A stretch of 64,000 nucleotides of DNA from Candidatus Levyibacteriota bacterium (GTDB taxonomy: Bacteria > Patescibacteriota > Microgenomatia > Levybacterales > UBA12049), in assembly GCA_029260965.1 (NCBI GenBank), contig JAJDCG010000001.1, positions 20,803-84,802 on the forward strand. Reading direction: 5' to 3'. The notes under the pieces are model-generated. The model ran no database searches, had not been told where the DNA came from, and saw only the letters and a program-made list of their open reading frames with translations. Of the stretch, positions 14,080 to 63,772 are shown piece after piece (within the stretch, counting starts at the first letter, position 1; the number at the start of each line of letters is the position of its first letter). A program made the position numbers and the translations under genes.

Positions 14080-14080
14080 G

Positions 14081-38546: not shown

Positions 38547-38682
38547 AAGCTAAATACGAATATCAAAACAATAAATGACAAAAAGTTTTGATATTTGAAA
38601 ATTATTTAGAATTTCGATATTCGTATTTCGAATTTATAAAAATCAACATTCACTTATAGAAATTAAAAATTGATTTTTATTG

Positions 38683-39192: not shown

Positions 39193-39888
39193 TTATTCTC
39201 CATGCGCCAGGGTCAGACCGTAGACTTTTTTAACTCCTGCTTTTTTCAAAACTTTTGCCGCTTCTTTAATAGTTGCACCAGAAGTCAAGACATCATCCAC
39301 CAGAAAAACAGTTCCATAATTCATGATTCCTAATTCATTATTTTTAATCCCAAACGCTCCTCTAATATTCTCTTCACGCTCCTCTTTTTTAAGTCCAAAC
39401 TGCCGTTTGGTGTTTTTAGTACGATGGAGAATCTTTAAGACTTTGATATTAAATTTTTGGGAAAGACCCTTTGCCAAAATCTCTGAGTGGTTATAACCCC
39501 GCTCTCTCATTCTGCTCTGATGAAGCGGAATCGGGACAAAAACCGACTTCTTATCAAGAGTGATCATAAACTCTTCTTTTTGAATTATCCCTTCATAAAA
39601 AAGATCAAGGAGCATGTCGCTCATATCTGAAAGGAAAGGCTTGTATTTGAACCTATAAATCAATCTTTTAACAACACCTCTATAGACAAGGCTTGAGAAA
39701 GCTCCATCAGGTGTATATTTGTTAAGGCACTTTGGATGAGTCAGGCTGCCGATTGCTGCTTTTTGACAAACAATGCATGTGCCGCTGTCAATAAATGAGA
39801 TGTAGGAAAAACACTTGGCACAAATATAAGAACCAAATCTCTGACAGCTAACACAACGTCGAGGAAATATAAAATCAAGTAAGCCCAT
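39193..39888 (-). CDS. comFC: ComF-family competence protein (ComFC-type phosphoribosyltransferase with N-terminal zinc finger)
   Basis: N-terminal CxxC...CxxC (CVSCQR...CAKC, CIVCQK), C-terminal PRTase motif VFLVDDVLTSGATIKEA. Confidence 0.75.
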   Translation of the reverse strand: MGLLDFIFPRRCVSCQRFGSYICAKCFSYISFIDSGTCIVCQKAAIGSLTHPKCLNKYTPDGAFSSLVYRGVVKRLIYRFKYKPFLSDMSDMLLDLFYEGIIQKEEFMITLDKKSVFVPIPLHQSRMRERGYNHSEILAKGLSQKFNIKVLKILHRTKNTKRQFGLKKEEREENIRGAFGIKNNELGIMNYGTVFLVDDVLTSGATIKEAAKVLKKAGVKKVYGLTLAHGE

Positions 39889-44629: not shown

Positions 44630-44716
44630 GGAGGGATCGCATAGTGGTCTAGTGCGCGGGCTTGGAAAGCTCGTATGGTCGAAAGACTATCGGGGGTTCG
44701 AATCCCCCTCCCTCCG
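44630..44716 (+). tRNA. tRNA-Ser (anticodon GGA)
   Basis: GGAGGGA...CGGGC-TTGGAAA-GCTCG...long variable arm...GGGGG-TTCGAAT-CCCCC-TCCCTCC-G. Confidence 0.8.
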
Positions 44717-44758
44717 CAACTTGACAACACTATCAAAATACCTCACACTAAAATAGCT

Positions 44759-47035: not shown

Positions 47036-50000
47036 TTATCTTCCTTCTGATGTCTGTATAGCACCTTTTAGCAGAGTGCCCAATACAGCCAGGTATGTAG
47101 CCAGGCCTATCCTGCTATCAGGACTTCCTCTTTGTCCCAAAAACGCTTCTTTCAAAGCACTCCTGAGCGTAGAGCGCAGCAGTGATGTTTTGGTTATATT
47201 CCCAAACCACTGCATCTCTTCTTGTTCATAATATCCTGGTATCAGCCTGACATCACCTAGACTAAATTCGCTCCCTAAAATATCTTTTGGCAAAGTTTTG
47301 AGCGCGTCTGCGACAGTCAGAAAATATGCCTCATTATATCGAGAATCCGTCATCGAATAGCTTCTGAAGCTTACGAATTTAGATGCCAACTCTGTAAGCA
47401 CAGCTCTTCTTACAAGAAGCTTCATATGTTTTGGGTCATTTAGCTTGTTATAATCTATCTTTATTCGCCCATCAACATCCTTTACGACTTTACCTTTTTT
47501 ATCTCTCATCCAAAAAGAACTGCTGTTGAGCAGGTCATAACCAAACATATGCTCACCCAGAGTCATGTCTCGCCATATAGCCTCACCTGCTGTCAGTGAT
47601 GCTTCTTGATCAAGATAGCGATCCTTTTTCGAGTAATCGAGACTACCATAATCAGAAATAAGATATCTATATGGAGTAACAAGCTTTTTCTGAAAATCCT
47701 GTATAAACACTTCTTTTTGAAAAACAGGACCCTGAACAGGATGATGCTCTGTAAAATTTTTAAAATCAAACTCCTCCTTAGCGCTCATTATGTGGTCATA
47801 CATGTCAAGCCCTTTTCCGAGCTGGTCATTTGCCCAATTAAACAATGCATTTTCATTAAATGCTATCCTTCCCGTCATTTTCTGATATTGTTCCTGAAAG
47901 TATCTGGTCAAAAACCTGAGTCCATTTTCTTCCTTCTCTATCTCCGCTTCAGACGCACCCTGCCTCCTCATCTCTTCAATTTTCTTCCTGTATTTCTGGA
48001 GTTGCCTTTCTTGGGCTGTTTTCATTATGTCTGTTTCATCAAACTGTTCTTTTGCCGTGGTGTAATGCCTTCTACCCTCTTTATCCACTGTGAAGTGCAC
48101 TGTGTTTACTCCTCTCCATGTATCAGTAACCAAAGCTTTTTCCTGAAAAGTTCCAGGGTAATAACCGCCAGGATCTCCTTTCTTAAGTACCTTCACACGA
48201 TAAGCCGAAAGATTCATGGCTCTACCAGGGATCGTAACCGAGGGCTCATAGACATCATTTCTTGCCCAAATTAGCGCAGGTGCGGTCATGCCATATGAAA
48301 GCAGATCTGCAAATTTCAGGTTAATTTCATGCTCATCCCCCGTCTTTGTCCTGAGATGGAACTGCTCAGCAACTGTTGCCTTCATCACCTCACGCAAGGG
48401 CAGCACTACTTTTTTATTTTCGTTTTTCTGGACAAAAAAATTAATAAATTTTACAAAATTATCAGCATTGCTTTTGGTGGTTATCTGTCCGTTTTTATCA
48501 AAAGCTTTCACAAACTGTTCATGCGTCTCAAATCCCCAAAAGGCCTGCACTTCTTTTTCCCCTGTTGACTTTGTGCTTTCACCAAGTATTTTCATTAAGC
48601 CCTTTTCCCAGGTTTCTCTTTTGAAAAAATTTGAATCCTGACCTAATATTTCCTGAAGCTTTGAAAAATCAGAAAGCGCATCATAAACTCTGTACATCTT
48701 ATTGTATGCAGCCCCGACATCACTGTCGCTATAAAGAGGTTCTCCTTTTCTGGAGCTCTTGAACTCATTTGGAAAAAGCATCATATGGCTCATCAGGTTC
48801 TTACCCAAGGCATCCTTGGTAAGAGTACTCCCAGCCATCATCTCAGTAATAGTTTCTTTAAACTTTTCTCCATCTGCTCTTACTTTCTTAAGTTGCGCTG
48901 TCTGGGTTAAAAGAGTGGACAAAACCCAGGCTTCTTTTATCCATTGTGCGTAAAGATCGTTATATCTTGTTTCTCCATCTTCTGATTTAAAAAACCCTCC
49001 AGTAGGATTTGCAAACATACTCATAAGATTAGTTAAAGTCCCTCCATAACCTATACGTGCAAGACTTACTTCTTCGAAAAAATTATGTGGATCATCAGGA
49101 TTCAAGTCATACATCTCATACATTTTATTTCTCACCCACTCAACCATATTTCCTTCATTCACATAGTACTTGCTTCTCTCTGCATCAACAACCTTGTGTC
49201 CTTTTTCCATTTTTGTGACAATTCTCATCTCAAGAAGAGGAAATTTATCTGCAATTCCCCATTTATCATGCGATGTAGAATGCATCATGCGCCAAGCAAG
49301 CTCCTCAATGGTATCTGGTGATGCATCATACTCCTCTATGTTAAGGTTACCAGTTGCATTTCTACCTGTCTTGAGAAGTGCTTTGGGGAAAACAAGCCTC
49401 CTAACCCACTCTTCTGGCAAGTCAAGACTAATGGCAACTCCCTTTTTATCATCATCTAGCCACCTGTCATGCTCTCCTGTCAGTATTTTATACTTTTTTC
49501 TCAGATTCTCATTGCTGGATGAATGATCAATTTCTTCACCAGTCTCCCTCTTGTATGCAGCCATTGCTGTTTTGATAGAACTGATGAGCTCATCTGGCTT
49601 CCTGCCTCGAGCCAAAAACATCTCAAGAAGCATCCTTGTCTCATCATCTGAAACATGAAGATTTTTAATAAGCTCCTCTCCTACCTCAACTATTTTCTCA
49701 GTTGGCCAACCATATTCGCTCCAGTCCTCTTTCCTCCAGCTTTTCCTTGCAGCCTTCTGCTCAACCTCACTAGCACCCTCTCTAGCATAGGGTAAATTTT
49801 TTTCACTTCTGAGTACCTCGCCCGGAACAGGCTCATCCCCACCGCCTTCAAGCCTTTCCTGCTCTGTGAAAGCTTTTACTTTCTCTTCAATCTCGTAAAG
49901 TTGTCTATGCGTGCTGGCAAGAACAGCCTCATTACTCAACTCCTCATTTTCCATTATTTCCTTAAACCTTCTTTCCTCTTCGCTTGTAAGTATTTTCTTT

Positions 50001-50311
50001 TGTTTTTCTGCCTTCTGATACTCCTCTTTGGAGCTTGCATTTCCTATAAAGGGTTTTTCTTTGCGGTTGATAAATTCTCTAATTTGATAGTAAAGATCTC
50101 TTGTTCCTGCATCTTGCCGGATTTCATCAAGGCTTCTACCATGATTTTCTTGCACAAATTCATCCCAAGCTTGATATATTTCTCTTGTCTCACTGTTTCC
50201 TTCAAGAACTGCTGCACCTGCTTCTGACATACCTCTATCATATCGACTGGCAGACTGTGGTGTCAATTTAATTTCATGCTCCATAATGATTGGATTGTAA
50301 TCAAAACCCAT
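47036..50311 (-). CDS. Very large hypothetical soluble protein (1091 aa), no recognisable motif
   Basis: Uninterrupted ORF, no signal peptide/TM, embedded between VirB6-like gene and T4SS-like cluster on opposite strand. Confidence 0.5.
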   Translation of the reverse strand: MGFDYNPIIMEHEIKLTPQSASRYDRGMSEAGAAVLEGNSETREIYQAWDEFVQENHGRSLDEIRQDAGTRDLYYQIREFINRKEKPFIGNASSKEEYQKAEKQKKILTSEEERRFKEIMENEELSNEAVLASTHRQLYEIEEKVKAFTEQERLEGGGDEPVPGEVLRSEKNLPYAREGASEVEQKAARKSWRKEDWSEYGWPTEKIVEVGEELIKNLHVSDDETRMLLEMFLARGRKPDELISSIKTAMAAYKRETGEEIDHSSSNENLRKKYKILTGEHDRWLDDDKKGVAISLDLPEEWVRRLVFPKALLKTGRNATGNLNIEEYDASPDTIEELAWRMMHSTSHDKWGIADKFPLLEMRIVTKMEKGHKVVDAERSKYYVNEGNMVEWVRNKMYEMYDLNPDDPHNFFEEVSLARIGYGGTLTNLMSMFANPTGGFFKSEDGETRYNDLYAQWIKEAWVLSTLLTQTAQLKKVRADGEKFKETITEMMAGSTLTKDALGKNLMSHMMLFPNEFKSSRKGEPLYSDSDVGAAYNKMYRVYDALSDFSKLQEILGQDSNFFKRETWEKGLMKILGESTKSTGEKEVQAFWGFETHEQFVKAFDKNGQITTKSNADNFVKFINFFVQKNENKKVVLPLREVMKATVAEQFHLRTKTGDEHEINLKFADLLSYGMTAPALIWARNDVYEPSVTIPGRAMNLSAYRVKVLKKGDPGGYYPGTFQEKALVTDTWRGVNTVHFTVDKEGRRHYTTAKEQFDETDIMKTAQERQLQKYRKKIEEMRRQGASEAEIEKEENGLRFLTRYFQEQYQKMTGRIAFNENALFNWANDQLGKGLDMYDHIMSAKEEFDFKNFTEHHPVQGPVFQKEVFIQDFQKKLVTPYRYLISDYGSLDYSKKDRYLDQEASLTAGEAIWRDMTLGEHMFGYDLLNSSSFWMRDKKGKVVKDVDGRIKIDYNKLNDPKHMKLLVRRAVLTELASKFVSFRSYSMTDSRYNEAYFLTVADALKTLPKDILGSEFSLGDVRLIPGYYEQEEMQWFGNITKTSLLRSTLRSALKEAFLGQRGSPDSRIGLATYLAVLGTLLKGAIQTSEGR

Positions 50312-50397
50312 TCAGTCCACTTTATTTTTATTTTATAGAAACATTACAAAATATTAAAAAAGTTGTGCTATATAAGCAGAACAATTACAATAGCCTC

Positions 50398-51723
50398 ATG
50401 GGACCAGAACGTTTTGAATCTATATATCCCGATACTGTTCGTTCAGAAGAGATAAAAAAAATAATATCTTATGTAAAAGAAGGAAAGTCTACGCAACTCA
50501 TAAGCATACCTGGTGCTGGACGATCATCTATACTTGGTCTTCTTTCCCACAATGATGCTATTAGAAAAAAATATCTCGGAGACAAAAAAGATATTCATTT
50601 TGTGCTTGCCAATTTTTCTGAGATTAGAAAACGACCCCTCTTCGACGCAATAAAATTTCTATTTCTGAGCCTGACCAACTCATTAAAAGAGAAAAAAATG
50701 AACGAATACAATAAGATTAACTCACTATTTAAAGAAAATCTTGCTTATAATGATGAGCTTGTACTTTTTCAGGCTCTGAAAGAAGCCATTGACTATCTAA
50801 CAATTGAAAGAAAAACAAAAATTGTTTTCTTGTTTGATCGTTTTGATGAATACATTCCGTATTTGACACCAGAATTTTTTACTAATTTGCGCTCCCTCAG
50901 ACAAAGAGCTAAATACAGCCTTTCTGTTGTTTTTTCAATCAACAGACCACTTGAAGACGCTCTTGAGCCTACATTATTGTCAGATTTCTACGAATTTGTG
51001 GCAGGCAATCAAATCTATGTAGGGCTTGTGGATCTTGAAATGACAACCTTCAGGGTTAGGTATATTGAAAAAATTTCCCATAAAAAACTGCCATCAGGAG
51101 TATTTGAACAGATTATGAAACTCACTGGTGGTGATGGAAGATTGGTAAAGCTGTCTGTTGAAATTCTATTGTCAAATCCTAAGCCTAAGAATCTCAACGA
51201 TTTTTTACTGTCCCAGGAATCAATCAAAAGCGCTTTAAGCGAATTATGGCGCTCTTTTCTCCCTTCAGAGCAATCAGACCTCATAGAAGGAAACTTTGAT
51301 AATGAAAATATAAGAACTCATCTTGAAAACGTGGGTGTTGTTAAAAATAAAAAAATACAAATACCTCTTTTCTCAGAATTTATAAAAACACAGTATCAAA
51401 AACTCAAAAATGGAAAAAATCAGTTTATGTATGATGAGAATACAAACAGCATTAAAAATAATGATGCCATATTCTCTGACCAACTAACATCTTCAGAATT
51501 CAGGCTGCTCAAATTCCTCATCCTCAACAAGGATCGAATTATTAATAGAGAAGAGATTATAAATTTTGTCTGGTCTGATCAAAAATCAACTGCAGGAATT
51601 ACTGACCAGGCAGTAGATCAGCTAATTTTTCGCTTGCGACAAAAAATTGAAGAGAACCCGAATAGCCCCATTCATCTTCAAACAATCAAGGGACGAGGAT
51701 TTCGCTTTTTACCAAAATGCTAA
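50398..51723 (+). CDS. Putative regulator: N-terminal P-loop/AAA-like ATPase domain + C-terminal OmpR/PhoB-type winged-helix DNA-binding domain
   Basis: Walker-A-like ISIPGAGRSSILGLL, Walker-B-like KIVFLFDRFDEY; C-terminal LTSSEFRLLKFLILNKDRIINREEIINFVW...QAVDQLIFRLRQKIE...IKGRGFRF is a trans_reg_C signature. The track start at 50290 overlaps the divergent gene, so I use the ATG at 50398. Confidence 0.55.
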   Translation: MGPERFESIYPDTVRSEEIKKIISYVKEGKSTQLISIPGAGRSSILGLLSHNDAIRKKYLGDKKDIHFVLANFSEIRKRPLFDAIKFLFLSLTNSLKEKKMNEYNKINSLFKENLAYNDELVLFQALKEAIDYLTIERKTKIVFLFDRFDEYIPYLTPEFFTNLRSLRQRAKYSLSVVFSINRPLEDALEPTLLSDFYEFVAGNQIYVGLVDLEMTTFRVRYIEKISHKKLPSGVFEQIMKLTGGDGRLVKLSVEILLSNPKPKNLNDFLLSQESIKSALSELWRSFLPSEQSDLIEGNFDNENIRTHLENVGVVKNKKIQIPLFSEFIKTQYQKLKNGKNQFMYDENTNSIKNNDAIFSDQLTSSEFRLLKFLILNKDRIINREEIINFVWSDQKSTAGITDQAVDQLIFRLRQKIEENPNSPIHLQTIKGRGFRFLPKC

Positions 51724-51766
51724 CCAATCAATTGCATTTTTATCTCCAACTTAGTAATCTAGACTT

Positions 51767-52093
51767 ATGAGCATTTTGTCACAAGCCAAGCTTCCGAAGC
51801 CACCTTCAAGTATTCCCAGCGTGCCAACTGGTCAATCAGGTCTATCATATACTGGAGAGATTTTAAGAAACGCCATTACAATCATGATAATAATTGCTAT
51901 AATCTTGTCTGTTATTTTTCTTATCATCTCAGGTATCAAGTGGATCACATCAGGCGGAGACAAAGAAAAACTCCAAGCTGCAAAAGCAAGACTAACATGG
52001 GCCATTGTTGGCCTGATAGTTGCCTTTGTGGCATTTTTCTTAGTAAATATTTTGGGCTACATCTTTGGAGTAGAGTTGCTTGGATTCTTTTAA
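51767..52093 (+). CDS. VirB2/TrbC-like pilin-family small membrane protein, paralog 1
   Basis: Two hydrophobic helices flanking conserved IKWITSGGDKEKLQAAKARLTWAIVGL shared with the next two ORFs. Confidence 0.4.
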   Translation: MSILSQAKLPKPPSSIPSVPTGQSGLSYTGEILRNAITIMIIIAIILSVIFLIISGIKWITSGGDKEKLQAAKARLTWAIVGLIVAFVAFFLVNILGYIFGVELLGFF

Positions 52094-52145
52094 ACTTAAG
52101 TATTGACAAAAACAAAACAAGTGTTCTAGTATAAAGACAACCTAT

Positions 52146-52538
52146 ATGAAAAAACTAGTAAGCGCAGCCGTGGGAGTAGTATCTTATCTTTCGTTAGCAG
52201 GTGGTGCTTTTGCGCAGACGGTTGATCCCTGTCCAAAAGGTGAATTCAACGCACTTTGTTCAAAATTTAATGCAAGTGATACTGGAAGCATTATTGGCAC
52301 AGTGCTAACCTTTCTTCTCATCGCAGCTGTAATTGTTGCGCTTTTCTTTCTGATCTGGGGGGGCATCCGTTGGATTACATCAGGCGGAGACAAAACCAAG
52401 GTTGACTCAGCCAGAGGGCACATAGTTGCAGCAATCGTAGGTCTACTAATTGCTTTTGTTGCTTACTTTATAGTACAAATAATACTGAACGTATTCGGTC
52501 TTGGCCCTGTCAGTAGCCTAGAGCTTCCAACTTTCTAA
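52146..52538 (+). CDS. VirB2/TrbC-like pilin-family small membrane protein, paralog 2 (signal peptide)
   Basis: Signal peptide MKKLVSAAVGVVSYLSLAGGAFAQ, Cys pair, TM, IRWITSGGDKTKVDSARGHIVAAIVGL, second TM. Confidence 0.45.
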   Translation: MKKLVSAAVGVVSYLSLAGGAFAQTVDPCPKGEFNALCSKFNASDTGSIIGTVLTFLLIAAVIVALFFLIWGGIRWITSGGDKTKVDSARGHIVAAIVGLLIAFVAYFIVQIILNVFGLGPVSSLELPTF

Positions 52539-52589
52539 TCTAAATCTTCTTGTGTTTTACTTTTCCCTCTGATATTCTGAATTAGTCTT

Positions 52590-53000
52590 ATGAAAAAAAT
52601 CCTTCACTTCTTTCTGCTTTTTACGACAGCTAGTCTTGCACATCCATCAAATGCACACGCGCAGCTTTTTAAAAACTGGGATCAGGTAGTATCTGGATGT
52701 GTAATTGATGGAGTGCCCACTCTCCGATGCTTACCTGCTGTATTTGGAAACCTCATAAATGCAGGCATTGCTTTTGTGGGTGTTGTTGCTGTAATTCTCA
52801 TAGTTTACTCTGGAATAAGACTTATAACCTCAGGTGGAGATCCAAAAAAAGTTGCAGGAGCTCGTCAAATTATGACCTATGCCATAATTGGCTTAGTACT
52901 CGTGCTCTCATCCTTTGCTATAGTATTGTTCATCGGCTATGCTACCGGTAGCAGCGACTGTATTGGAGACCTAAACAACATAGCCTCTGGATGTAAATAA
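52590..53000 (+). CDS. VirB2/TrbC-like pilin-family small membrane protein, paralog 3 (signal peptide)
   Basis: Signal peptide MKKILHFFLLFTTASLAHPSNAHAQ, Cys pair, TM, IRLITSGGDPKKVAGARQIMTYAIIGL, second TM. Confidence 0.45.
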   Translation: MKKILHFFLLFTTASLAHPSNAHAQLFKNWDQVVSGCVIDGVPTLRCLPAVFGNLINAGIAFVGVVAVILIVYSGIRLITSGGDPKKVAGARQIMTYAIIGLVLVLSSFAIVLFIGYATGSSDCIGDLNNIASGCK

Positions 53001-53102
53001 CAAATTCTCCAAGTTTTCACAGACCCAGCCTCAAAGAAAATTTTTTTGATCTACTTTGAAAGAGTTGCAAACATATTTTTCACGTTATACACTTTTTTTA
53101 CT

Positions 53103-54356
53103 ATGGACAACCACCCTATACCCCAAGACGTAACAGGCTTCAAATTCAAGCTTATTGGCAGCATGACAGTAAAACAATTCGCCTACGTTGCAGCAGGCGT
53201 CATTACCTCAGTAATTTTATACTATCTTCCCCTGAAGGGTATTGCAGGGGGCCTCATAAAGGCATTGTTAATACCCGTATCTTTTGGTAGTGGAATTATG
53301 ATTGCCTTTCTTCCAATTGATGGAAGACCGATGGATGTAATGCTGGGTAATTTTATAAAGGCAGTTTTTTCACCCAATCAATACCTTTATCACAAAAACG
53401 GTCGAAGATTTAGCTTCATGACCATCTCGCTACCAACACGAGGCGCTTTCCAAAACACGCAACAAACGATGCAGGATCACCCAACCCATACAAACACCAA
53501 AAATAAACAGCTCAGAGAATTTCTTGACAAGAATAAAAGTCCTGAAATAAAAAATAACCTTGACAACAAAGAGCTTGCTTTTCTCAAATCCTTGGCAAGC
53601 AGCTATACCCAGACACCTGCATTACAACAGCATGCAGCAACACAACCACCCATACAGCAACCCCCACAACCTGCGTCTATACAAAAAGCTGAAAATCAAA
53701 CCATCCAAGAACCAATTGCTCGACCAGTGCAAAAAACTACTCCTGCTGTTCAGACAGCACCCGTGCAGCCACCATTAACAGCGCGGGTCGCAAATCCTGA
53801 ACCTACAAAAAACACAAATCCGCAAAACAATAAACCAGAACAATTAAAACAGCAGATCCAGAATGCCCATGATCAAAAAAAACTGCTTGAGAATGAACTA
53901 TCAAAACTTAAAAATCAGCTCCAAGAACACAAACCAGAAACACCTACTACAGCAGTAAGCCCATCTTCTGCACCCATACACACAACCCCAAACCCCACAC
54001 ATGTTCGGTCAATTCCTAAAGAAAGCGTACAAAAAATGGGAATCCTCGTCCCTGATTCTCCTAATGTTGTTGTGGGAATAGTAAAAGACCCAAGAGGAAA
54101 CATACTACAAAACATACTTGTTGAAATAACCGATAAGGATGGTAACGCTGTACGCGCTTTCAAAACTAACGCTCTCGGACAGTTTGCCTCAGCCACCCCT
54201 TTACCCACAGGCTCCTATACGGTTACACTTGAGGATCCCAGAAATCAACACAAGTTTGACTCAATTAAGATAGCTGCCAGAGATCAGGTTATGCTACCAA
54301 TTGAAATAATATCCTATGACAAACGGGAAGAATTAAGAAGAGACTTATTTAACTAA
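53103..54356 (+). CDS. PrgI/TcpE (VirB3-like) family membrane protein with Q/P-rich linker and C-terminal beta-sandwich (carboxypeptidase-regulatory-like) domain
   Basis: N-terminal FKFKLIGSMTVKQFAYVAAGVITSVILYYLP...IPVSFGSGIMIAFLPIDGRPMDVMLGNFIKAV resembles PrgI-family two-helix module; position directly upstream of VirB4. Confidence 0.45.
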   Translation: MDNHPIPQDVTGFKFKLIGSMTVKQFAYVAAGVITSVILYYLPLKGIAGGLIKALLIPVSFGSGIMIAFLPIDGRPMDVMLGNFIKAVFSPNQYLYHKNGRRFSFMTISLPTRGAFQNTQQTMQDHPTHTNTKNKQLREFLDKNKSPEIKNNLDNKELAFLKSLASSYTQTPALQQHAATQPPIQQPPQPASIQKAENQTIQEPIARPVQKTTPAVQTAPVQPPLTARVANPEPTKNTNPQNNKPEQLKQQIQNAHDQKKLLENELSKLKNQLQEHKPETPTTAVSPSSAPIHTTPNPTHVRSIPKESVQKMGILVPDSPNVVVGIVKDPRGNILQNILVEITDKDGNAVRAFKTNALGQFASATPLPTGSYTVTLEDPRNQHKFDSIKIAARDQVMLPIEIISYDKREELRRDLFN

Positions 54357-54359
54357 AGT

Positions 54360-55046
54360 ATGGCACAAAAAATTAACGCGTCTACGCAAAAATTTACAGA
54401 GATTGTTGACTTTGTTGATAATATAGTTGTTCTAGAGGGTGGAAACGCCTGTTTAATCATTGAAATCACTGCAAGTAACTTTGCATTGTTATCAAAAAGA
54501 GAACAAGACTCAAGAGTGGCCTCATATGCATCCCTTCTCAACTCGCTTTCTTTTCCTATACAGATTCTAATACGCAACAAGCGGATGGATATATCAAACT
54601 ACTTAAACGAATTGGATGAGGCAAAGAAAAATTCAAAGAACGATAGGCTGGCAACATACATTAGCTACTACCGCGATTTCGTTGAGGAGATAGTAACTGT
54701 AAATGTAGTTCTGAACAAATCTTTCTTTATTGTGGTGCCATACTCTTTTCTAGAAGGCAACATGCCCAATGCAAGCCAGCCACAACAAGCAAAAAAACAA
54801 AAAGATACTGTTTCTAAGTCTCAGAAAATTGCAGAAAATGCCAAAAGAGCTTTAGAGTCCAAGTCATCAACCGTTATGGCTCAGCTTCAAAAATTTGCTG
54901 TATCTGCAAAAATCCTCGAAAAAGACGAGCTGGTTAAGCTCTTTTATGACATATACAACCAGGGTGACGCACTGAATGTTGAACAAGCAGAGCCAGACAC
55001 TCAGAATGCATTCGTTGCAACAGCAGGAGGAGGAGAAAATACATGA
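54360..55046 (+). CDS. VirB4 N-terminal-domain-like protein (possible split VirB4 or frameshift), coupled by ATGA overlap to VirB4 ATPase ORF
   Basis: VVLEGGNACLIIEITASNFALLSKREQDSRVASYASLLNSLSFPIQILI resembles the N-terminal segment of Gram-positive-type VirB4 ATPases; stop overlaps next start at 55043-55046. Confidence 0.35.
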   Translation: MAQKINASTQKFTEIVDFVDNIVVLEGGNACLIIEITASNFALLSKREQDSRVASYASLLNSLSFPIQILIRNKRMDISNYLNELDEAKKNSKNDRLATYISYYRDFVEEIVTVNVVLNKSFFIVVPYSFLEGNMPNASQPQQAKKQKDTVSKSQKIAENAKRALESKSSTVMAQLQKFAVSAKILEKDELVKLFYDIYNQGDALNVEQAEPDTQNAFVATAGGGENT

Positions 55047-57187
55047 AAATCCCATTTCTAAAAAACAAAGACACCCAAACACAGCCCACCACTCAGACAC
55101 CTGCACAAAACAACAAAATGGCTGTAAGTCAAAACACTCAACAATCCACAAAAGCTCTTGAAAAACTTGAAAAGGGCCTAACCTCAGTAATCGACATTAT
55201 TGCTCCATCTTCAGTAGAAGTAGATTTCCGTTATATTAGAGTTGGTGAGACTTTTTACACTACTCTTTTTATCGCTGGCTATCCACGCTATGTTTCTCCT
55301 GGCTGGCTTACTCCAATTGTTGACTATGATCACACCCTTGATATATCCATGTTTTGCTATCCTACCTCGTCGACAGACATTCTTTCAGATCTAAAAAGAA
55401 AAATCGGAGAGATGCAAGCAACCCTTTCATCAGATGCTGAACAGGGAAAGGTTGCAGACCCCTCTGTTGAAGCTGCCCTTGAGGATGCCCTTGGCCTTCA
55501 GGAGGAATTAGCAAAGGGGGTTGAACGGTTTTTCCAGTTTGGATTTTACATAACAGTTTCAGCCGAAAGCCTAAATGAACTCAACCAAACAGTAAAAGAA
55601 CTAAAAACCACACTTTCATCCCTGCTTCTGACAGGCAAAACCTCCACACTCCAAATGGAGGAAGGCTTCAAATCCACACTTCCAATCGGCCAAGACAAGC
55701 TCTATATCACACGGAACATGGATACAACATCTCTCGCATCAACCTTTCCTTTTACATCTGCTGTTCTCACCCAAAACAAGGGTGTTATGTATGGCGTGAA
55801 TCAACAAAACGGATCCCTGATAATCTTTGATAGATTTTCACTAGAAAATGCCAATGAAATCGTTCTTGGTAAGTCTGGTGCTGGAAAATCTTATGCCATA
55901 AAGCTGGAAATTGCCCGACAATTTATGCTCGGCACTGAAGTGATAGTTATTGATCCAGAGGGAGAATATGAAGTGTTAACTCCTGTTCTAGGCGGTGAGG
56001 TTGTAGATTTTTCTTCAAATTCTGAAATAAAAATTAATCCTTTTGATCTTGCCGATGTCTATGAAGAGGGGGAAAATCAACTTGGACTTAAAATACTCTC
56101 ACTTCATGGCCTCTTAAAAATAATTACTGGAGAGCTTGATGCTGAACATGATGCAATCATGGATCGTGCACTTATTGAAGCGTACAGACAGAAAGGCATC
56201 ACTACTGACCCAGCAACTCAAAAAAAAGAACCGCCATTGATGGAGGATCTTTACAAAACCCTTCTCGGCATGGAAAATCAGCCGGCTAAGGATCTTGCAT
56301 ACAGGCTTGAAAAATTCATCAAAGGATCAGCCCAGGGCATATTTAACCAGCAATCAAATTTCGAGATCAATAATCCCCTAACTGTTTTCTCGATAAGAAA
56401 TCTTGAAGAAGAACTAAGACCTGTTGCAATGCACATAATTCTTGACTTTGTCTGGACCAGAGTCAAAAAATCACTTAAAAAGCGTATTTTAATACTTGAC
56501 GAGGCATGGTACATGATGAAATATCAAGACAGCGCATCATTTGTCTACTCAATCGCCAAAAGAGCACGTAAATATTATTTAGGAATGACTACTGCAACAC
56601 AAGATGTGGAAGATTTTCTCAAAAATGAATACGGGAAGGCAGTTCTAACTAATTCTTCAATTCAGATTCTTCTCAAACAAGGAACAGCCGAGGTTGACAT
56701 GATATCTGAAACTTTTTATCTATCTGAAGGGGAAAAAGCACTTCTTCTATCTTCTGATGTTGGAGAAGGACTTTTCTTTGCAGGACAAAACCATGTTGTT
56801 ATGAAGGTTTTTGCAGCTCCTTTTGAACACGAATTAATCACCTCTAATCCTGAGGAGGTTTCAAAAAGACAGGAAGCAGACGCGGAATATGCAAAAGCTG
56901 AGGCTAACGCTGCACAAGTGGAACAAGCCACTGCTCCTACTGAGACTTCGCAAGCATCAGCCCCATTATCTCAGAAACCAATACAGGAATACACACCCCC
57001 ACAAGAAACACAAACCCAATCTCAAACGTCTTCAATCCAGGCATCGGACCCCATTCCTCCACAACAAGCCCAAAACACACCTGCTAACACAGATGTTGTG
57101 AACAACCCACCAACACCACAACAACCCATTACAAGCGCATACACACCACCACAGCCACCCACCACAAACCCTACCAACGAGTCCTAA
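55043..57187 (+). CDS. VirB4/TrbE/CagE-family T4SS ATPase with P/T/Q-rich C-terminal tail
   Basis: FIAGYPRYVSPGWLTPI segment, Walker A LGKSGAGKSYAIKLEI, Walker B RILILDEAWYMM, arginine-finger region; 714 aa. Confidence 0.8.
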   Translation: MKIPFLKNKDTQTQPTTQTPAQNNKMAVSQNTQQSTKALEKLEKGLTSVIDIIAPSSVEVDFRYIRVGETFYTTLFIAGYPRYVSPGWLTPIVDYDHTLDISMFCYPTSSTDILSDLKRKIGEMQATLSSDAEQGKVADPSVEAALEDALGLQEELAKGVERFFQFGFYITVSAESLNELNQTVKELKTTLSSLLLTGKTSTLQMEEGFKSTLPIGQDKLYITRNMDTTSLASTFPFTSAVLTQNKGVMYGVNQQNGSLIIFDRFSLENANEIVLGKSGAGKSYAIKLEIARQFMLGTEVIVIDPEGEYEVLTPVLGGEVVDFSSNSEIKINPFDLADVYEEGENQLGLKILSLHGLLKIITGELDAEHDAIMDRALIEAYRQKGITTDPATQKKEPPLMEDLYKTLLGMENQPAKDLAYRLEKFIKGSAQGIFNQQSNFEINNPLTVFSIRNLEEELRPVAMHIILDFVWTRVKKSLKKRILILDEAWYMMKYQDSASFVYSIAKRARKYYLGMTTATQDVEDFLKNEYGKAVLTNSSIQILLKQGTAEVDMISETFYLSEGEKALLLSSDVGEGLFFAGQNHVVMKVFAAPFEHELITSNPEEVSKRQEADAEYAKAEANAAQVEQATAPTETSQASAPLSQKPIQEYTPPQETQTQSQTSSIQASDPIPPQQAQNTPANTDVVNNPPTPQQPITSAYTPPQPPTTNPTNES

Positions 57188-57206
57188 ACTTTGCTAGTAT
57201 TAAATA

Positions 57207-58691
57207 ATGGATGATGAAGAAAGACAGGATGACGCTCCTGAAGAGGAACCCCAGGATGAAGATGGCGAAAACGATCAAGGAGTTAGCCAACCTGGTGCTC
57301 CAGGTCGTGGGGCCCGTGTATCACAAAAGGGTGGCAGAATAAAAAATGCTCTTAAAGAAGGTGCAAGGGGACTCAGCAAGGGTAAGGGAAAAAACGCAGC
57401 AACAGACGCATTGAAAGGATTCAGGCATGGCAGTATAAACAAAGATGATGAAGACAGTAAACATAAACGACCGTCCCTGAGGCAAATCCGTCGTTTTAGC
57501 AAAATGGCAAAAGGACTTAAGGGCGCAGGTGGCGCAGCTGGTGGAGGAGCAGCAGCTGGTGGAGAAGCAGTAGCAGCAGGCGCAGCAGCAGCTGGTGCAG
57601 GAATGCCTGTTGCATTAATTGTATTAATCGTGGTTTTTGTAATTATTCTGCTTTTTGGCTTTATATTTATGTTTAATAATCCCGAACCCTCAATCCTTTC
57701 AATAACTAAAACTGGCCCAGAAACAGCTTCCTCAGGAGAGGAAATAACTTATCAGATAAATGTCTCATATCCCGACACGGCAGAAAATATAATAATAAAA
57801 GATCGTATTCCTTCTGAAACCGACTATGTATCCTCCTCTCCCTCTGCTAGATTTGACGCTTCTACAAGGACAGCTACGTGGAGCCTAAGCGAGTTTATTT
57901 CCCCTATAAATAATGTGAACACCACTCTAAACATCAGCCTGCGCATAAAAGATGGGCTAACAAATGTCAACATAATCAACCTGTCCGAGGGTGAAGTTAT
58001 TGGTGGCGGAACTGACCCAGGCACCGGAACTCCGACAGGCGATATCGCAAAACTATTGCCCCAACCCCTACCCCCAGACTCTCCCTCGGTTCTAAACCGC
58101 AAATCAGCAGTCATACTATCAACACAAAACACCACGAACAAGGAAGCATACGAAAAAGCCTCTCTAGCCACAGGCTTACCCTGGCAGGTTTTTGCAGGCA
58201 TACACTACAGAGAGGGAGGGGCTGCTCCAAACAAATCTATTGTCAGTGGTAGAACTATTGGCTCCCGAGAACCAGATGTTGAAAATGGACCAGGGTGCAG
58301 CGTGCATAATACAAAAGGAGCTACTGATGGTCTTGCTGAAAAACTCAGCAGTGGGGGCTGTGGTTTTAGTTCTCTTGCTGATTCAGCAATCTATGCAGGA
58401 ATTCTTTTGAAAAAAAAGGTTAACGGTAACCTGAATAGCTACGAGGACCTTGTAAAAGCTTTGTCAAGATACAATGGCGGTGGTAACGCAAACTGTGGAA
58501 AGACACCCTATACTGGTTGTCCAAAACTCTTCTACGGAGAAGACGACACTTATGTCGTAAACCTTTTTGATGAAAAGCACGCAACTATGTATGTTGTTTA
58601 TTGTGCTGATCACACCTTGTGTAATCCTCCCAAAACAGACTCTCGACCAGGCGCAGCAACAGCTATAAAATGGGTTTCGCAGTCAAATTAA
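57207..58691 (+). CDS. Surface/membrane protein: acidic N-terminus, Gly/Ala-rich segment, TM, DUF11 (conserved repeat) domain, Cys-containing C-terminal domain
   Basis: ITKTGPETASSGEEITYQINVSYPDTAENIIIKDRIPSETDYVSSSPSARFDASTRTATWSL fits the DUF11 repeat pattern; single TM VALIVLIVVFVIILLFGFIFMF. Confidence 0.4.
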   Translation: MDDEERQDDAPEEEPQDEDGENDQGVSQPGAPGRGARVSQKGGRIKNALKEGARGLSKGKGKNAATDALKGFRHGSINKDDEDSKHKRPSLRQIRRFSKMAKGLKGAGGAAGGGAAAGGEAVAAGAAAAGAGMPVALIVLIVVFVIILLFGFIFMFNNPEPSILSITKTGPETASSGEEITYQINVSYPDTAENIIIKDRIPSETDYVSSSPSARFDASTRTATWSLSEFISPINNVNTTLNISLRIKDGLTNVNIINLSEGEVIGGGTDPGTGTPTGDIAKLLPQPLPPDSPSVLNRKSAVILSTQNTTNKEAYEKASLATGLPWQVFAGIHYREGGAAPNKSIVSGRTIGSREPDVENGPGCSVHNTKGATDGLAEKLSSGGCGFSSLADSAIYAGILLKKKVNGNLNSYEDLVKALSRYNGGGNANCGKTPYTGCPKLFYGEDDTYVVNLFDEKHATMYVVYCADHTLCNPPKTDSRPGAATAIKWVSQSN

Positions 58692-58727
58692 ATTGTTATT
58701 GTCGTTTGTTTTTAATAAACTAGAACT

Positions 58728-59291
58728 ATGTATGCTTTAAAAGGTAAGTTTATTCTTTTTGCTTTAGCTATTATTCTCATAATAATCTTGACTGTTCTTG
58801 TGTTTTTTTCTTTTTCACAAACAGACAATCAAGACGACACAGGAACCACGCCCATAAAACAAACGGGTTCGGAAAACAAAATTCCTGCTTTTAAAACAAT
58901 CACCAACATACCAACAACTACTGAAGGCATAGACGAAAACTCTATAGAAGTAAAAAATTCGATTAAAGAGATAGAAAATCTCTATCCACACTTACCATAT
59001 TCTGAAGAACTCGTCTCATCCACAGGAGTAGATCTATCAATACTCATTCCTTCCAGGGAGTTTCAAACAAACAGTTTTACTTTGTCTGTTGAGGTATTTG
59101 GAATTGACTATAACATGCCTGTTGATGATCCTAATTACAGCAATATGCAAGCCTCTTTTCTGGAAGGAGCAGAGAAAATTTTTTCATTCATAAAAAGCAA
59201 GAATGTTGATCCCAAAAAAATTATCTTCTCCTGGGGTGATCGATTGTTTATACAGGAAAGGGCACAGGAGTGGTTAAAGGATGTTCAATAA
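58728..59291 (+). CDS. Bitopic membrane protein (N-terminal TM + periplasmic domain), T4SS-associated hypothetical
   Basis: Topology only; within T4SS-like cluster. Confidence 0.35.
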   Translation: MYALKGKFILFALAIILIIILTVLVFFSFSQTDNQDDTGTTPIKQTGSENKIPAFKTITNIPTTTEGIDENSIEVKNSIKEIENLYPHLPYSEELVSSTGVDLSILIPSREFQTNSFTLSVEVFGIDYNMPVDDPNYSNMQASFLEGAEKIFSFIKSKNVDPKKIIFSWGDRLFIQERAQEWLKDVQ

Positions 59292-59294
59292 ATT

Positions 59295-59993
59295 ATGAAG
59301 AAAATATCTGTTTTTATCATCACATTAATTTTTGTTTTCGTGAGTCTTTTTTTGCCGCTTAAAAGCTTTGCACAAAGCTCTGTAAGTTGTTGGGTAACTA
59401 AAATAGGCACTCCTAGTGAAGAAGCTGTGCTCCCTTTTCCATGTAGGGGAGCCGAAGATATCAATGGGCTGATTTATCCCCAACCATTAACAAAACACCC
59501 GACTAGAGCCGGCTATTATCAACTTCCCCCTTCTACTGATGGTTCTTACCGTATTGAGACGTGTCCTGGGCAATCATGGGGCTCACAGGAGTTGGTGGGC
59601 GTACTCTATACTGTTGCTAAAAGATGGAAAGAACTACACCCTAGAGGAAGATTAAACATAGGTGATTTGAACGCTTTTGGTCATAAATCACACAACTGGG
59701 GACGTGCAGTAGACCTTGACGCAACCACAACAGGTTCAGATTGGGTTGCTGACTTCACAAAGGGCAATTACAACAGGAGTGCAACAATTGAACTTGGCAA
59801 GCTGTTTGTGGATACGAATCTAATTTTAAATATTTGGTATAATGATCAAGCCGTAAACAATGAGGTATTGGCCTATTCAAGAGCTACAGGAAAGTCTTTA
59901 GGAATGAATATGAAACCCATAGTTGGACACAACAATCATTTCCATGTCGACATCAACACAGAAAAGCTTGGTTTTTGGGTTCCGGGATGTTAA
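59295..59993 (+). CDS. Secreted LAS-type zinc metallopeptidase, peptidase M15 (MepA-like murein endopeptidase)
   Basis: Signal peptide; H-x-x-H...D (FGHKSHNWGRAVDLD) and HxH (HNNHFHVDI) zinc-ligand pattern characteristic of MepA/VanY/M15 enzymes. Confidence 0.55.
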   Translation: MKKISVFIITLIFVFVSLFLPLKSFAQSSVSCWVTKIGTPSEEAVLPFPCRGAEDINGLIYPQPLTKHPTRAGYYQLPPSTDGSYRIETCPGQSWGSQELVGVLYTVAKRWKELHPRGRLNIGDLNAFGHKSHNWGRAVDLDATTTGSDWVADFTKGNYNRSATIELGKLFVDTNLILNIWYNDQAVNNEVLAYSRATGKSLGMNMKPIVGHNNHFHVDINTEKLGFWVPGC

Positions 59994-60595
59994 ATATGAG
60001 AAATTTTATAATAAAATATAGGTTTTTTTTAATCCCCATTGTCCCTCTTTTATTCGTTTTTTTTATGTTTTATTTTATAATATCCAACTCGCCAGCTCCA
60101 CACTCAAACACAGTACCCTCTCAAGCACCCAATAACTCAGACAACACAATACAAACAGATCAACAACTAGTTAATGATTTTGACGTACTTGAAGGAAACG
60201 AAGAACCAATTGGCACAGAAGGTCTAATACGTACAGAGAGTCTTTCTGATGGTACTGAAAAAAAATATTTTTTATCTTCTGTTCCTGGTCGGGAGAGAAT
60301 AATAACAACCAAAGGAAAAGATAATATTATTTTTGAATCCATACCTATAGGTGCAGATTTTTCTGTGAATTTAAATGACTTCACACAGGTATATGGTGAT
60401 GCGCGTTTTGTTTTCCTGGGATCTTCTTTTTATGGAGGATCTGCAGAAACTCACATCTACGCGGACGAGGGTATTGCTATAATCGTAAACCCTGCAACAG
60501 GACAGGTTTATGAGCAGCATGTTTTCATACCGGTTAGAACAGAGGATTATGTGAGGCTCTTTGGAGAAGATATCTCTTCTAGTTCTGGACCCTGA
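59975..60595 (+). CDS. Bitopic membrane protein, possible VirB8-like T4SS component
   Basis: N-terminal TM FLIPIVPLLFVFFMFYFIIS followed by about 170-aa soluble domain; assignment by topology and context only. Confidence 0.3.
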   Translation: MGSGMLNMRNFIIKYRFFLIPIVPLLFVFFMFYFIISNSPAPHSNTVPSQAPNNSDNTIQTDQQLVNDFDVLEGNEEPIGTEGLIRTESLSDGTEKKYFLSSVPGRERIITTKGKDNIIFESIPIGADFSVNLNDFTQVYGDARFVFLGSSFYGGSAETHIYADEGIAIIVNPATGQVYEQHVFIPVRTEDYVRLFGEDISSSSGP

Positions 60596-61688
60596 CTGGC
60601 ATTATTAAATGAAGATATGAGTTGTCATCTTTTATTTTAAAAACACCGGGATTAAGCGGCCCCGTCATTTCAAAAATCATGTCTTCCTCCTCCACCCCCC
60701 CCAATATATCTTGTAAATATCTTGCGTTAAATGCTATTTCATTTTCTTCTCCACTTAATTTCGCATCTACTTCTACAGAATTTTCTCCTGTTTGTGGAGT
60801 ATGAGAAGAAATTATAATTTTGTCTTTTGACAATGACATTTTTATTATATTTGCGCTGTCTCTAGCAAAAATAGAACATATTTTAACAGCCCTCTGCATC
60901 TCTTCCCTGTCGAATTCTATTTTGCTTGAAAAATCTGTAGGGATTATTTTTTTATAATCAGGGTATATTGCTTCTATCAACCTACCTATTAGGATTGTTT
61001 TCCCTTGTTCAAAAATAATCTGGCTACTCTCTTTAGACGTGTAAACGTTTATTTCTTCACTGTCTTCTTTTAAGACTAACAATTCTCTGAAAACTCTTGA
61101 TGGTACTATGATATTTTCTGTTTCTTCCTCATTGCTGCCTTTTATTTTGTGGTGTTTTAATGAAAGCCTGTAACCGTCTGTTGCAACAAGAAGAAATCCT
61201 TCTTCTTCTTTTTTAATCAACACTCCTGATAACGCTGGTCTGGTTGTATCCATACTAGAGGCAAATATGATAGATGAGAAATCTTTTTTTATTAAAACAG
61301 CGTCTAGAGTTGCAATCTTGTTTCCTTTGTTTTTATATAGTTTAGGGAATTCTTCGCTTTTGATTGTTTGAAGAACTGATTTTGTTTTCTTTGTTTTTAT
61401 TATCAATGTTTCTCTGTCCTCCTCTAGAACGATTTCTTCTTCTGAAAGAGATCCTATTAGGTCTATAAATGTCCTTGCTGGTATTGTTACAGAGCCTTCT
61501 TCTTCTGTTGCTGCATCTATATCTACCTCTATTCCAATTTCTAAATCTGTACTTGCTATTCTCAAATTATTTTTTTTTGCTTCTAGGAGGATGTTTAGAA
61601 GAACAGGAAGTTGGCTTTTTGGTGAAACAGCTCGGTTTATAAAAGGTAATTTCTCTTGGAGTTTTTTTATGGATATCTTTGTCTTCAT
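60579..61688 (-). CDS. dnaN: DNA polymerase III beta sliding clamp
   Basis: MKTKISIKKLQEKLPFINRAVSPKSQLPVLLNILLEA N-terminus and three-domain length (369 aa); downstream of dnaA. Confidence 0.85.
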   Translation of the reverse strand: MKTKISIKKLQEKLPFINRAVSPKSQLPVLLNILLEAKKNNLRIASTDLEIGIEVDIDAATEEEGSVTIPARTFIDLIGSLSEEEIVLEEDRETLIIKTKKTKSVLQTIKSEEFPKLYKNKGNKIATLDAVLIKKDFSSIIFASSMDTTRPALSGVLIKKEEEGFLLVATDGYRLSLKHHKIKGSNEEETENIIVPSRVFRELLVLKEDSEEINVYTSKESSQIIFEQGKTILIGRLIEAIYPDYKKIIPTDFSSKIEFDREEMQRAVKICSIFARDSANIIKMSLSKDKIIISSHTPQTGENSVEVDAKLSGEENEIAFNARYLQDILGGVEEEDMIFEMTGPLNPGVFKIKDDNSYLHLIMPVRVQN

Positions 61689-63442: not shown

Positions 63443-63772
63443 ATGTTAAAGAAGAGCCACCGTTTACCAGCAGGACAACGTCTGAAAAATCCTATTTTTC
63501 AAAACACAACATACTTTCTGCTTAAATATTCAAAAAACAAAAAAGAAGTTAGTAGATTTGCTTTTGTGATAAAAAAGAGTGTGGAAAAAACAGCAGTTGG
63601 CAGAAATAGAGCAAGGAGGGTGTTGAGATCATGCGTTGAAGAGACTCTTGGAGAGATAAAAACAGGATACGATATGATTTTTTTTATTCAAAAAGGTATA
63701 ATAGGCAAGAAGCAAGAGGAAGTCTGTGATCTTTTGAAAAAGCAGATGTTAAAAAACAATTTGATAAAATGA
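63443..63772 (+). CDS. rnpA: Ribonuclease P protein component
   Basis: Basic 109-aa protein with RNR motif AVGRNRARRVLR; follows rpmH. Confidence 0.8.
   Translation: MLKKSHRLPAGQRLKNPIFQNTTYFLLKYSKNKKEVSRFAFVIKKSVEKTAVGRNRARRVLRSCVEETLGEIKTGYDMIFFIQKGIIGKKQEEVCDLLKKQMLKNNLIK

Follow-up and report, generated by a model that had tools for sequence, protein, structure and literature searches.

Secretion systems of type IV (T4SS) occur widely across the Patescibacteria, a huge uncultured phylum, and here we describe the one encoded in a 64-kb stretch of DNA (the window) from Candidatus Levybacteria, class Microgenomatia. Its main locus is a cluster of 11 open reading frames (ORFs) at 50290-60595, all in the same orientation on the + strand and ending in a 17-nt overlap with the 3' end of dnaN. 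This cluster is most probably the Levybacteria example of the Patescibacteria T4SS already described in 2023-2025. A preliminary description of the window, made from the sequence alone, had held the combination and several of its members to be undescribed, which has to be withdrawn because the system is present in two of the papers discussed below (PMC10633639, PMC12102498) and the analogy with ComB in a third (PMC11665869). The locus adds no new kind of system, and its value lies in the details that it provides for Microgenomatia.

An 'apparent T4SS' (SEML1_0006-0019) was reported by Wang et al. (2023, Cell; PMC10633639) in the Saccharibacterium Candidatus Southlakia epibionticum ML1. It is most like Gram-positive conjugative systems, has no recognisable relaxase or coupling protein, and its pilins are essential. 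The tables of that paper list dnaA, dnaN and recF and, on the opposite strand, the prealbumin-like and PEGA exported proteins 0004 and 0005, then the lysozyme-like 0006, the 1113-aa 0007 with a C-terminal Hedgehog/DD-peptidase domain, VirB4 (0008), 0009 between VirB4 and PrgI (0010), 0011, the NTF2-like 0012 and TrbL/VirB6 (0013), followed by six PF18895 pilins. Nearly all of the genes 0004-0019 were essential for epibiotic growth by transposon sequencing (PMC10633639), and a recent review (FEMS 2025) describes this machine as the first T4SS that is essential to its own carrier and speculates that its pilus is a conduit.

For the wider distribution of these systems there is a survey of 3,035 Patescibacteria genomes, Levybacteria among them (Quinonero-Coronel et al. 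2025, Microb Genom; PMC12102498). The Patescibacteria VirB4 proteins form a monophyletic clade nested in MPF_FATA, TrsD adjoins virB4, VirB3 is of the PrgI type and arrays of VirB2 are abundant in Microgenomatia. Genes for the type IV coupling protein (T4CP) are mostly distant from virB4, around which dnaA, dnaN and rnpA are enriched. In Microgenomatia the VirB3 homologues lie mostly away from virB4 (22.6% near it) and VirB6 homologues are scarce.

Components of the Levybacteria system

We read the cluster, with a probability of roughly 0.85, as the Levybacteria version of a chromosomal, vertically inherited T4SS of the Patescibacteria clade, derived from monoderm MPF_FATA machinery and serving contact with a host rather than conjugation. 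What carries this reading is observed in the window and its relatives: the identities of the components, their order, their conservation, and a 64-kb window with neither relaxase nor integrase. The central component is the VirB4-family ATPase, which exceeds the cut-off of the NCBIfam model conju_CD1110 (E 3e-117, 392.8 bits against 325) over model positions 172-732 of 752, and which matches Pfam P-loop_TraG (E 9.9e-27) and the VirB4 C-terminal domain in PDB entry 4AG5 (E 1e-45). It has a Walker A motif GKSGAGKS (residue 276), a Walker B motif ILILDE (residue 482) and a C-terminal tail rich in Gln, Pro and Thr. Judged by profile scores, its closest family is that of the Firmicutes conjugative transposons, CD1110, ahead of TraC-F (183 bits), VirB4_CagE (123) and TrbE (26).

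The alignment to CD1110 begins only at position 172, so that the canonical N-terminal part of VirB4 is missing from the 714-aa protein. This part is supplied by the 228-aa ORF directly upstream: at scores short of the curated cut-offs it matches NCBIfam VirB4_plasma (positions 102-235, E 1.6e-8) and TrsD (E 7.6e-5). In a related locus of a Candidatus Microgenomates metagenome-assembled genome (MAG; JACQJR010000001.1, L038:9401-11899), the TrsD-like protein and VirB4 are fused in frame to a single 832-aa protein. Its residues 3-219 match the 228-aa ORF (E 6.6e-42), VirB4 is represented by residues 201-795, and the fusion shows the TrsD-like ORF to be a split-off VirB4 N-domain. As the small ORF is separate, at 215-247 aa, in 46 of 47 loci, the split of VirB4 is both real and old.

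The PrgI/VirB3-like protein exceeds the cut-off of PF12666 (27) with 35.7 bits (E 1.3e-8) and carries at its C-terminus, after a Gln/Pro-rich linker, a prealbumin-like CarboxypepD_reg domain (PF13620, E 5.9e-8, residues 342-411). Orthologues were found in 45 loci, mostly of 400-470 aa, and the length of the extension is kept in most of those from Levybacteria. By a positive-inside reading of the charged residues the CarboxypepD_reg domain would be cytoplasmic, an unusual location for this prealbumin-like fold. The VirB6-like family matches PF04610 in 27 of its 45 members; the copy in the window had no match by itself to any hidden Markov model (HMM), its identity resting on family and topology, and searches of PDB sequences and profiles with the family returned low-complexity or chance matches. 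The longest ORF for this protein (44675-47011) begins inside a tRNA-Ser(GGA) gene at 44630-44717, its N-terminal MVERLSGVRIPLPP being translated tRNA sequence, and the true start is therefore placed at 44759. The VirD4-like coupling-protein homologue exceeds the cut-offs of Pfam TrwB_AAD_bind (E 7.3e-11, 42 bits against 20.5) and TraG-D_C (24.9 bits against 22) and matches conju_CD1115 (E 2e-12); its gene lies 30 kb from the cluster, amid housekeeping genes.

Three VirB2-like pilins precede PrgI, each above the gathering score of Pfam T4SS_pilin PF18895 (26.6), with matches to TrbC PF04956 that are sub-threshold only. Pilins 1 and 2 have 49% identity over the core, pilin 3 is 35-39% identical to either, and the motif I-[KR]-[WL]-I-T-S-G-G-D that they share is confined to them among the ORFs of the window. 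Relatives have arrays of one to five pilin genes. Upstream of pilin 1 there is a promoter-like element, consisting of a -35 hexamer TTGCAT (51732-51737), a 17-nt spacer and a -10 hexamer TAATCT (51755-51760) that stops 6 nt before the ATG. In an alignment of the upstream regions of 13 loci the TTG is invariant and the -10 is conserved at a fixed distance to the ATG, and this spacing suggests that the pilin mRNA is leaderless or nearly so. A generic scan for consensus promoters was uninformative (44 sites against 34 expected) and missed this element, which is visible only in the alignment of relatives.

The genes downstream of virB4 encode surface and wall-active proteins. The first is a bitopic protein, in which a charged, Gly/Ala-rich N-terminal region and one transmembrane helix are followed by a DUF11 domain and, at the C-terminus, by a Cys-rich domain about 210 aa long (58062-58688). 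This last domain is lineage-specific: searches of Pfam, NCBIfam, PHROGs and PDB sequences returned no match, and none of the 48 related loci has a homologue. It replaces the SLT-like (lytic-transglycosylase motif) domain of most positional orthologues, of which at least 11 of 16 have the SLT-like motif ES.YNPNA...GAWGL.QM and two have Peptidase_M15_4. The secreted peptidase gave weak but concordant matches to Pfam M74 (E 4.6e-5, 23.6 bits against a cut-off of 25), to NCBIfam MepA (E 4.5e-4) and to the PDB profile of MepA, 1TZP (E 0.11). Its motifs H-x2-H-x2-G-x-A-x-D and H-x2-H-F-H (H130, H133, D140, H212, H215 and H217) are invariant in six of six orthologues, and it is probably a peptidoglycan endopeptidase. 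The two remaining proteins, of 187 and 206 aa, have no match in Pfam, NCBIfam, PHROGs or PDB. The former stands where relatives have a conserved family of about 180-190 aa, to which it is only 10-19% identical, and the latter is conserved in 14 loci at 22-37% identity. A VirB8-like label for this pair was set aside as speculation, the PDB searches having given low-complexity or chance matches. A PHROGs scan of the cluster added nothing.

The preliminary description had named most of these parts, and its three VirB2/TrbC-like pilins, PrgI/VirB3-like protein, VirB4 with Walker A and B motifs, N-domain ORF, VirB6-like and VirD4-like proteins, DUF11 surface protein and bitopic membrane proteins all stand. 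The peptidase it had assigned to family M15 is borne out as a metallopeptidase of the LAS type by the invariant motifs, whereas the label M15 goes further than the weak M74 and MepA matches allow. The features are collected in Table 1.

Table 1. Position of the T4SS genes and of the origin-region genes in the window (TM, transmembrane; wHTH, winged helix-turn-helix)
Feature	Coordinates	Strand	Remarks
VirD4-like coupling-protein homologue	18887-21280	-	One N-terminal TM; Walker A GKTGTGKS; Walker B FLYVDE
VirB6/TrbL-like polytopic protein	44759-47011	+	Signal peptide; 5-6 TM helices; long hydrophilic C-terminal tail
1091-aa protein	47036-50311	-	No TM or signal peptide; mostly helical; fast-evolving
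Putative winged-helix regulator	50398-51723	+	N-terminal degenerate P-loop-like motif; C-terminal OmpR/PhoB/ToxR-type wHTH
Pilin 1, VirB2-like T4SS_pilin	51767-52093	+	PF18895 E 1.3e-10; two TM helices; motif IKWITSGGD
Pilin 2, VirB2-like T4SS_pilin	52146-52538	+	PF18895 E 7.2e-8; signal peptide and two TM; motif IRWITSGGD
Pilin 3, VirB2-like T4SS_pilin	52590-53000	+	PF18895 E 2.3e-8; signal peptide and two TM; motif IRLITSGGD
PrgI/VirB3-like membrane protein, 436 aa	53046-54356	+	Probable start 53103; two TM helices
TrsD-like protein, 228 aa	54360-55046	+	Stop overlaps virB4 start
VirB4-family ATPase, 714 aa	55043-57187	+	conju_CD1110, P-loop_TraG, 4AG5, Walker motifs
DUF11 bitopic surface protein, 494 aa	57207-58691	+	DUF11 E 2.2e-9; TM residues 121-161
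Bitopic protein, 187 aa	58728-59291	+	N-terminal TM
LAS-superfamily metallopeptidase (MepA/M74- or M15-like), secreted, 232 aa	59295-59993	+	Weak concordant matches
Bitopic protein, 206 aa	59975-60595	+	TM residues 10-41; last gene before dnaN
dnaN	60579-61688	-	Pfam
dnaA	61838-63211	-	Pfam
rnpA	63443-63772		Beyond dnaA

Chromosomal setting, inheritance and comparison with described systems

Five perfect DnaA boxes occur in the window, three of which (61770, 61914 and 63242) are at or beside dnaA, and the cumulative GC skew has its minimum at about 61.5-62.5 kb. With rnpA beyond dnaA, these features place oriC at or near dnaA, at about 61.7-63.4 kb, and the earlier label of the cluster as origin-proximal is therefore correct. 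The T4SS operon lies on the lagging-strand side, convergent with dnaN; its position left of the origin and on the + strand means that transcription runs head-on to replication. The GC content of the cluster equals that of its flanks, and the rest of the window holds housekeeping genes, among them those for FtsH, a Mur ligase and MurL, class II ribonucleotide reductase and NrdR, GAPDH, a penicillin-binding protein, SmpB and tmRNA, together with eight tRNA genes. This convergent layout relative to dnaN-dnaA is shared by 29 related loci, and S. epibionticum has it too, with SEML1_0004-0013 facing dnaA-dnaN-recF. In the papers discussed here proximity to the origin is treated as a gene-dosage effect, with no discussion of the head-on orientation.

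When GTDB species genomes were scanned with VirB4, 48 related loci were obtained, with VirB4 identities of 47-88%, the best of them in MAGs of Levybacteria and other Patescibacteria. Where a label is informative, it mostly reads Candidatus Levyibacteriota, Levybacteria or Patescibacteria. The order pilins, PrgI, TrsD-like, VirB4 is kept in most of the 48, dnaN and dnaA are convergent on the cluster wherever they were detected, and about 20 loci also retain, upstream, the genes for the VirB6-like and 1091-aa proteins and for the regulator. Some contigs (L002, L003, L007-L010, L036, L037 and others) are labelled Gammaproteobacteria, Acidiferrales, Sulfotelmatobacter, Limnocylindrales or Nanoarchaeia; their T4SS-dnaN-dnaA loci are near-identical to the Levybacteria type, and these are probably mislabelled MAG records.

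Conservation was compared in 29 loci, all those with VirB4, DnaN and DnaA together. The median identity of VirB4 is 79%, above that of DnaA (61%) and DnaN (59%), and is followed by 59% for the TrsD-like protein, 54% for the regulator, 45-51% for the pilins, 43% for PrgI, 36% for the VirB6-like protein and 25% for the 1091-aa protein. VirB4 identity is correlated with that of DnaN (Spearman 0.68) and DnaA (0.60), and the position relative to dnaN-dnaA is the same in all 29 loci, which span 55-86% VirB4 identity. The conserved synteny, and a VirB4 divergence that tracks that of DnaA and DnaN, indicate a vertically inherited machine under strong constraint; a VirB4 that is better conserved than DnaA, at a fixed site and co-diverging with the chromosome, argues for a cellular organelle and not a mobile element. 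Scans of all substantial ORFs of the 64 kb with Pfam or NCBIfam models revealed no relaxase. An element-type integrase is likewise absent from the 64 kb, the sole recombinase being XerC/D-like (14468-15352), 35 kb away beside divIC. A repeat search for flanking direct repeats and for att-like or oriT-like repeats yielded short chance matches only, and the intergenic regions hold no notable inverted repeats. The preliminary description, which had seen neither relaxase nor integrase beside the cluster and had called it a chromosomal T4SS of the Gram-positive (PrgI) type rather than a conjugative element, is upheld on these points.

A comparison with S. epibionticum was made by means of published gene tables and annotations rather than by sequence alignment. 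Both loci have a VirB6/TrbL-like protein, PrgI, a small TrsD-like protein upstream of VirB4, VirB4, a LAS domain, exported Ig- or prealbumin-like domains and an array of PF18895 pilins, and in both a relaxase is absent, the coupling protein lies outside the locus and the operon is convergent on dnaA-dnaN. They differ in the pilins, which are six and divergently transcribed in S. epibionticum, whereas the three of the window are co-oriented upstream of PrgI. Between VirB6 and PrgI S. epibionticum has the NTF2-like 0012, which is VirB8-like, and the 998-aa 0011, in contrast to the unrelated-looking 1091-aa protein (opposite strand) and the wHTH regulator of the window. The lysozyme-like 0006 of S. 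epibionticum is an analogue of VirB1 and its LAS domain is part of a 1113-aa protein, whereas the LAS peptidase of the window is a separate protein of 232 aa.

The system of the 2025 survey (PMC12102498) is shared in its MPF_FATA-related VirB4, adjoining TrsD, PrgI-type VirB3, VirB2-like array, distant T4CP, absent relaxase and dnaA/dnaN/rnpA neighbourhood. The published HMM searches found few VirB3 and VirB6 homologues near virB4 in Microgenomatia, whereas the window, like its Levybacteria relatives, has a PrgI-like gene two genes upstream of virB4 and a VirB6-like gene, a divergent one, about 8 kb upstream. The main text of the survey makes no mention of the regulator, the 1091-aa protein or the head-on orientation.

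The conjugative systems of MPF_FATA themselves (pCF10 Prg/Pcf, pGO1 Trs and the Clostridioides difficile conjugative transposons) resemble the locus in a VirB4 that passes the CD1110 cut-off, in PrgI, TrsD, VirB6/PrgH-type and VirD4 (CD1115-like) proteins, in cell-wall hydrolases and in the lack of an outer-membrane core. Unlike them, the window yielded no relaxase, oriT or PrgB-type adhesin, and its locus is chromosomal, origin-proximal and vertically inherited. To our knowledge, Gram-positive conjugation systems have no VirB2-like pilins. Helicobacter pylori ComB and archaeal Ced are, like the system described here, relaxase-less T4SS-derived machines with a non-conjugative role; ComB is a diderm VirB2-4/6-10 system.

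Proposed mechanism and competing explanations

In the mechanism that we propose, the split VirB4, consisting of the TrsD-like N-domain ORF and the ATPase proper, would dock on the membrane through the PrgI/VirB3-like protein, the polytopic VirB6-like protein would form the membrane channel, and the three divergent pilins would build a pilus or conduit that sticks out of the monoderm envelope. Peptidoglycan, either the cell's own or that of the host, may be opened locally by the secreted LAS peptidase together with the DUF11 surface protein, and the dedicated winged-helix regulator would sit at the pilin promoter. The preferred function of such a machine is a contact-dependent translocation of proteins or other macromolecules between the presumed epibiont and its host. 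We favour translocation over pure adhesion, with import as a live alternative and conjugation as very unlikely. Essentiality for host-dependent growth, which has been shown in S. epibionticum only, would carry over to Levybacteria by analogy.

Several points weigh against this reading. The placement in the Patescibacteria clade draws on HMM scores, taxonomy and synteny. Levybacteria, of which we know of no culture, are presumed epibionts, and the experimental support comes from Saccharibacteria, another class. The absence of a relaxase covers the 64 kb only, as seen with Pfam and NCBIfam models only, and neither a VirB8-like nor a VirB1-like protein could be demonstrated in the window by profile and PDB searches. 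Finally, a perspective of 2024 (PMC11665869) terms the role of the Patescibacteria T4SS "completely unknown" and itself draws an analogy with uptake by ComB.

This analogy leads to the strongest competing explanation, in which the T4SS and its pilus are an import machine of the ComB or Ced kind that takes up DNA, nucleotides or other host molecules and so feeds an auxotrophic cell. Import has been raised both in that perspective and in the FEMS 2025 review, and it is compatible with a locus that has no relaxase and a distant coupling protein, as well as with the T4SS loci of class ABY1, which co-localise with comF, recG and radA (PMC12102498). The window does hold a gene for a ComFC-like protein with a double zinc ribbon and a phosphoribosyltransferase domain (39193-39888) and one for the competence- and recombination-associated RadC (12640-13341), but neither is adjacent to the T4SS, the former being 11 kb off among unrelated genes. 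Matches of the VirB4 and VirD4-like proteins to CedB and CedD (E 2e-13, 7e-7 and 2e-5) are far below the cut-offs (CedB 49.8 bits against 700, CedD 28.3 bits against 600), which does not amount to membership, and they are much weaker than those to the conjugative VirB4 family. In S. epibionticum competence depends on type IV pili and ComEC, and a comEC deletion abolishes competence while viability is kept (FEMS 2025 review), whereas the T4SS is essential; transformation-type DNA uptake is therefore no explanation of essentiality. The direction of transport cannot be read from a sequence, and we regard import as possible, though distinctly less probable than the translocation proposed above.

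A second explanation, which we consider unlikely, is that of an organelle for adhesion only, in which VirB4 assembles a VirB2-type pilus with DUF11-type surface adhesins and nothing is translocated. The diversity of the pilin paralogues and the varying size of their arrays, along with the variable surface proteins downstream of virB4, would suit such an organelle and the host-range adaptation that has been proposed for VirB2 arrays (PMC12102498). Patescibacteria, however, already have type IV pili for adhesion and motility, the VirB6-like channel subunit and the VirD4-like protein have been retained, and the conservation of VirB4 is extreme for pilus assembly alone. As for an integrated conjugative element, or its decayed remnant, inserted near the origin with its relaxase and integrase lost or elsewhere, the homology of the components to conjugative parts of Firmicutes (CD1110, CD1115, TrsD and PrgI), the tRNA-Ser gene immediately upstream of the VirB6-like gene and the relaxases that a few Patescibacteria carry (109 in 3,035 genomes; PMC12102498) are outweighed by a window without relaxase, element-type integrase or flanking repeats, by a site that is fixed in 29 loci and the same in Saccharibacteria, by a GC content equal to the flanks and by a VirB4 that co-diverges with DnaA and surpasses it in conservation, and on position, GC content and co-divergence this and any prophage or other mobile element are rejected as very improbable.

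A linked regulator and 1091-aa protein, and other genes of the window

The first gene of the cluster had been taken for an ATPase joined to a winged-helix regulator. The winged helix is clear (Trans_reg_C E 2.2e-18; PDB profile matches to RegX3, WalR, PhoB and ToxR, E 2e-12), whereas the ATPase is reduced to a degenerate P-loop-like motif, G-x-P-G-x-x-R-S-[ST], in which an Arg replaces the Walker-A Lys in nearly all orthologues. A TTG start at 50290 was rejected for its overlap with the divergent 1091-aa gene and for orthologues that begin 36 codons later; these have 441-442 aa, and the start is therefore probably at 50398. The regulator was found in 21 loci, at about 54% identity and adjoining the pilin array in most. 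In 16 of the 21 it is inverted relative to the pilins and precedes the 1091-aa gene in the same orientation; in the window, as in L017, L031, L019 and L047, it is co-oriented with the pilins.

The 1091-aa protein shows a consistent linkage to the regulator, to the pilins and to the VirB6-like gene. It has no match in Pfam, NCBIfam, PHROGs or PDB, nor did a Pfam scan of 36 diverse members of its family or a PDB profile search return anything. The family has 313 representatives at E <= 1e-3, with a median identity of about 25% to positional orthologues. Word-indexed homologue and profile searches with the protein itself found six proteins, and an AlphaFold2 model from the six-sequence alignment (pLDDT 46) was unusable. 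Two metagenome contigs from JGI (L050 and L051, positions 7165-17164) carry two pilins, the regulator, a 1091-aa homologue and a VirB6-like gene, together with a 512-aa protein that combines a pilin-like part with PG_binding_1, and have no PrgI, TrsD-like, VirB4 or dnaN gene within 10 kb. This arrangement without the VirB4 part indicates that the cluster of the window is made up of two separable modules.

Levybacteria appear to have added a lineage-specific module of regulator and 1091-aa protein to the known T4SS. A tentative and on balance improbable suggestion is that the 1091-aa protein is a translocated effector, or a new cytoplasmic part that recruits substrates, under common regulation with the pilus and diversifying as the host range does. 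Were this so, the 1091-aa protein would be the first candidate cargo for a Patescibacteria T4SS, and the regulator and its 1091-aa partner are candidates for follow-up. In the papers discussed here we did not find the wHTH regulator with a degenerate P-loop, the linked 1091-aa protein or the C-terminal domain of the DUF11 protein, and the same holds for the natural TrsD-VirB4 fusion, the inversion of the regulator, the separable module and the conserved pilin promoter.

Among the genes elsewhere in the window, SmpB is followed by a full-length tmRNA (38100-39091; Rfam 113.9 bits), and at 28187-29179 a CvpA (Colicin V production) membrane domain and a CAP/cysteine-rich secretory protein domain are fused in a single protein. 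The XerC/D-like recombinase gene is adjoined by one for a 426-aa protein (15412-16692) that matches Pfam MATCAP, the microtubule-associated tyrosine carboxypeptidase family (E 1.3e-23). At 9466-12095 a Mur ligase gene precedes one for a MurL-like UDP-MurNAc-L-Ala-L-Glu epimerase, with a match to NCBIfam MurL (E 5.7e-117) that falls short of the equivalog cut-off; we take this as a hint of the alternative MurD2/MurL route to the D-Glu of peptidoglycan that is known from Xanthomonadales.

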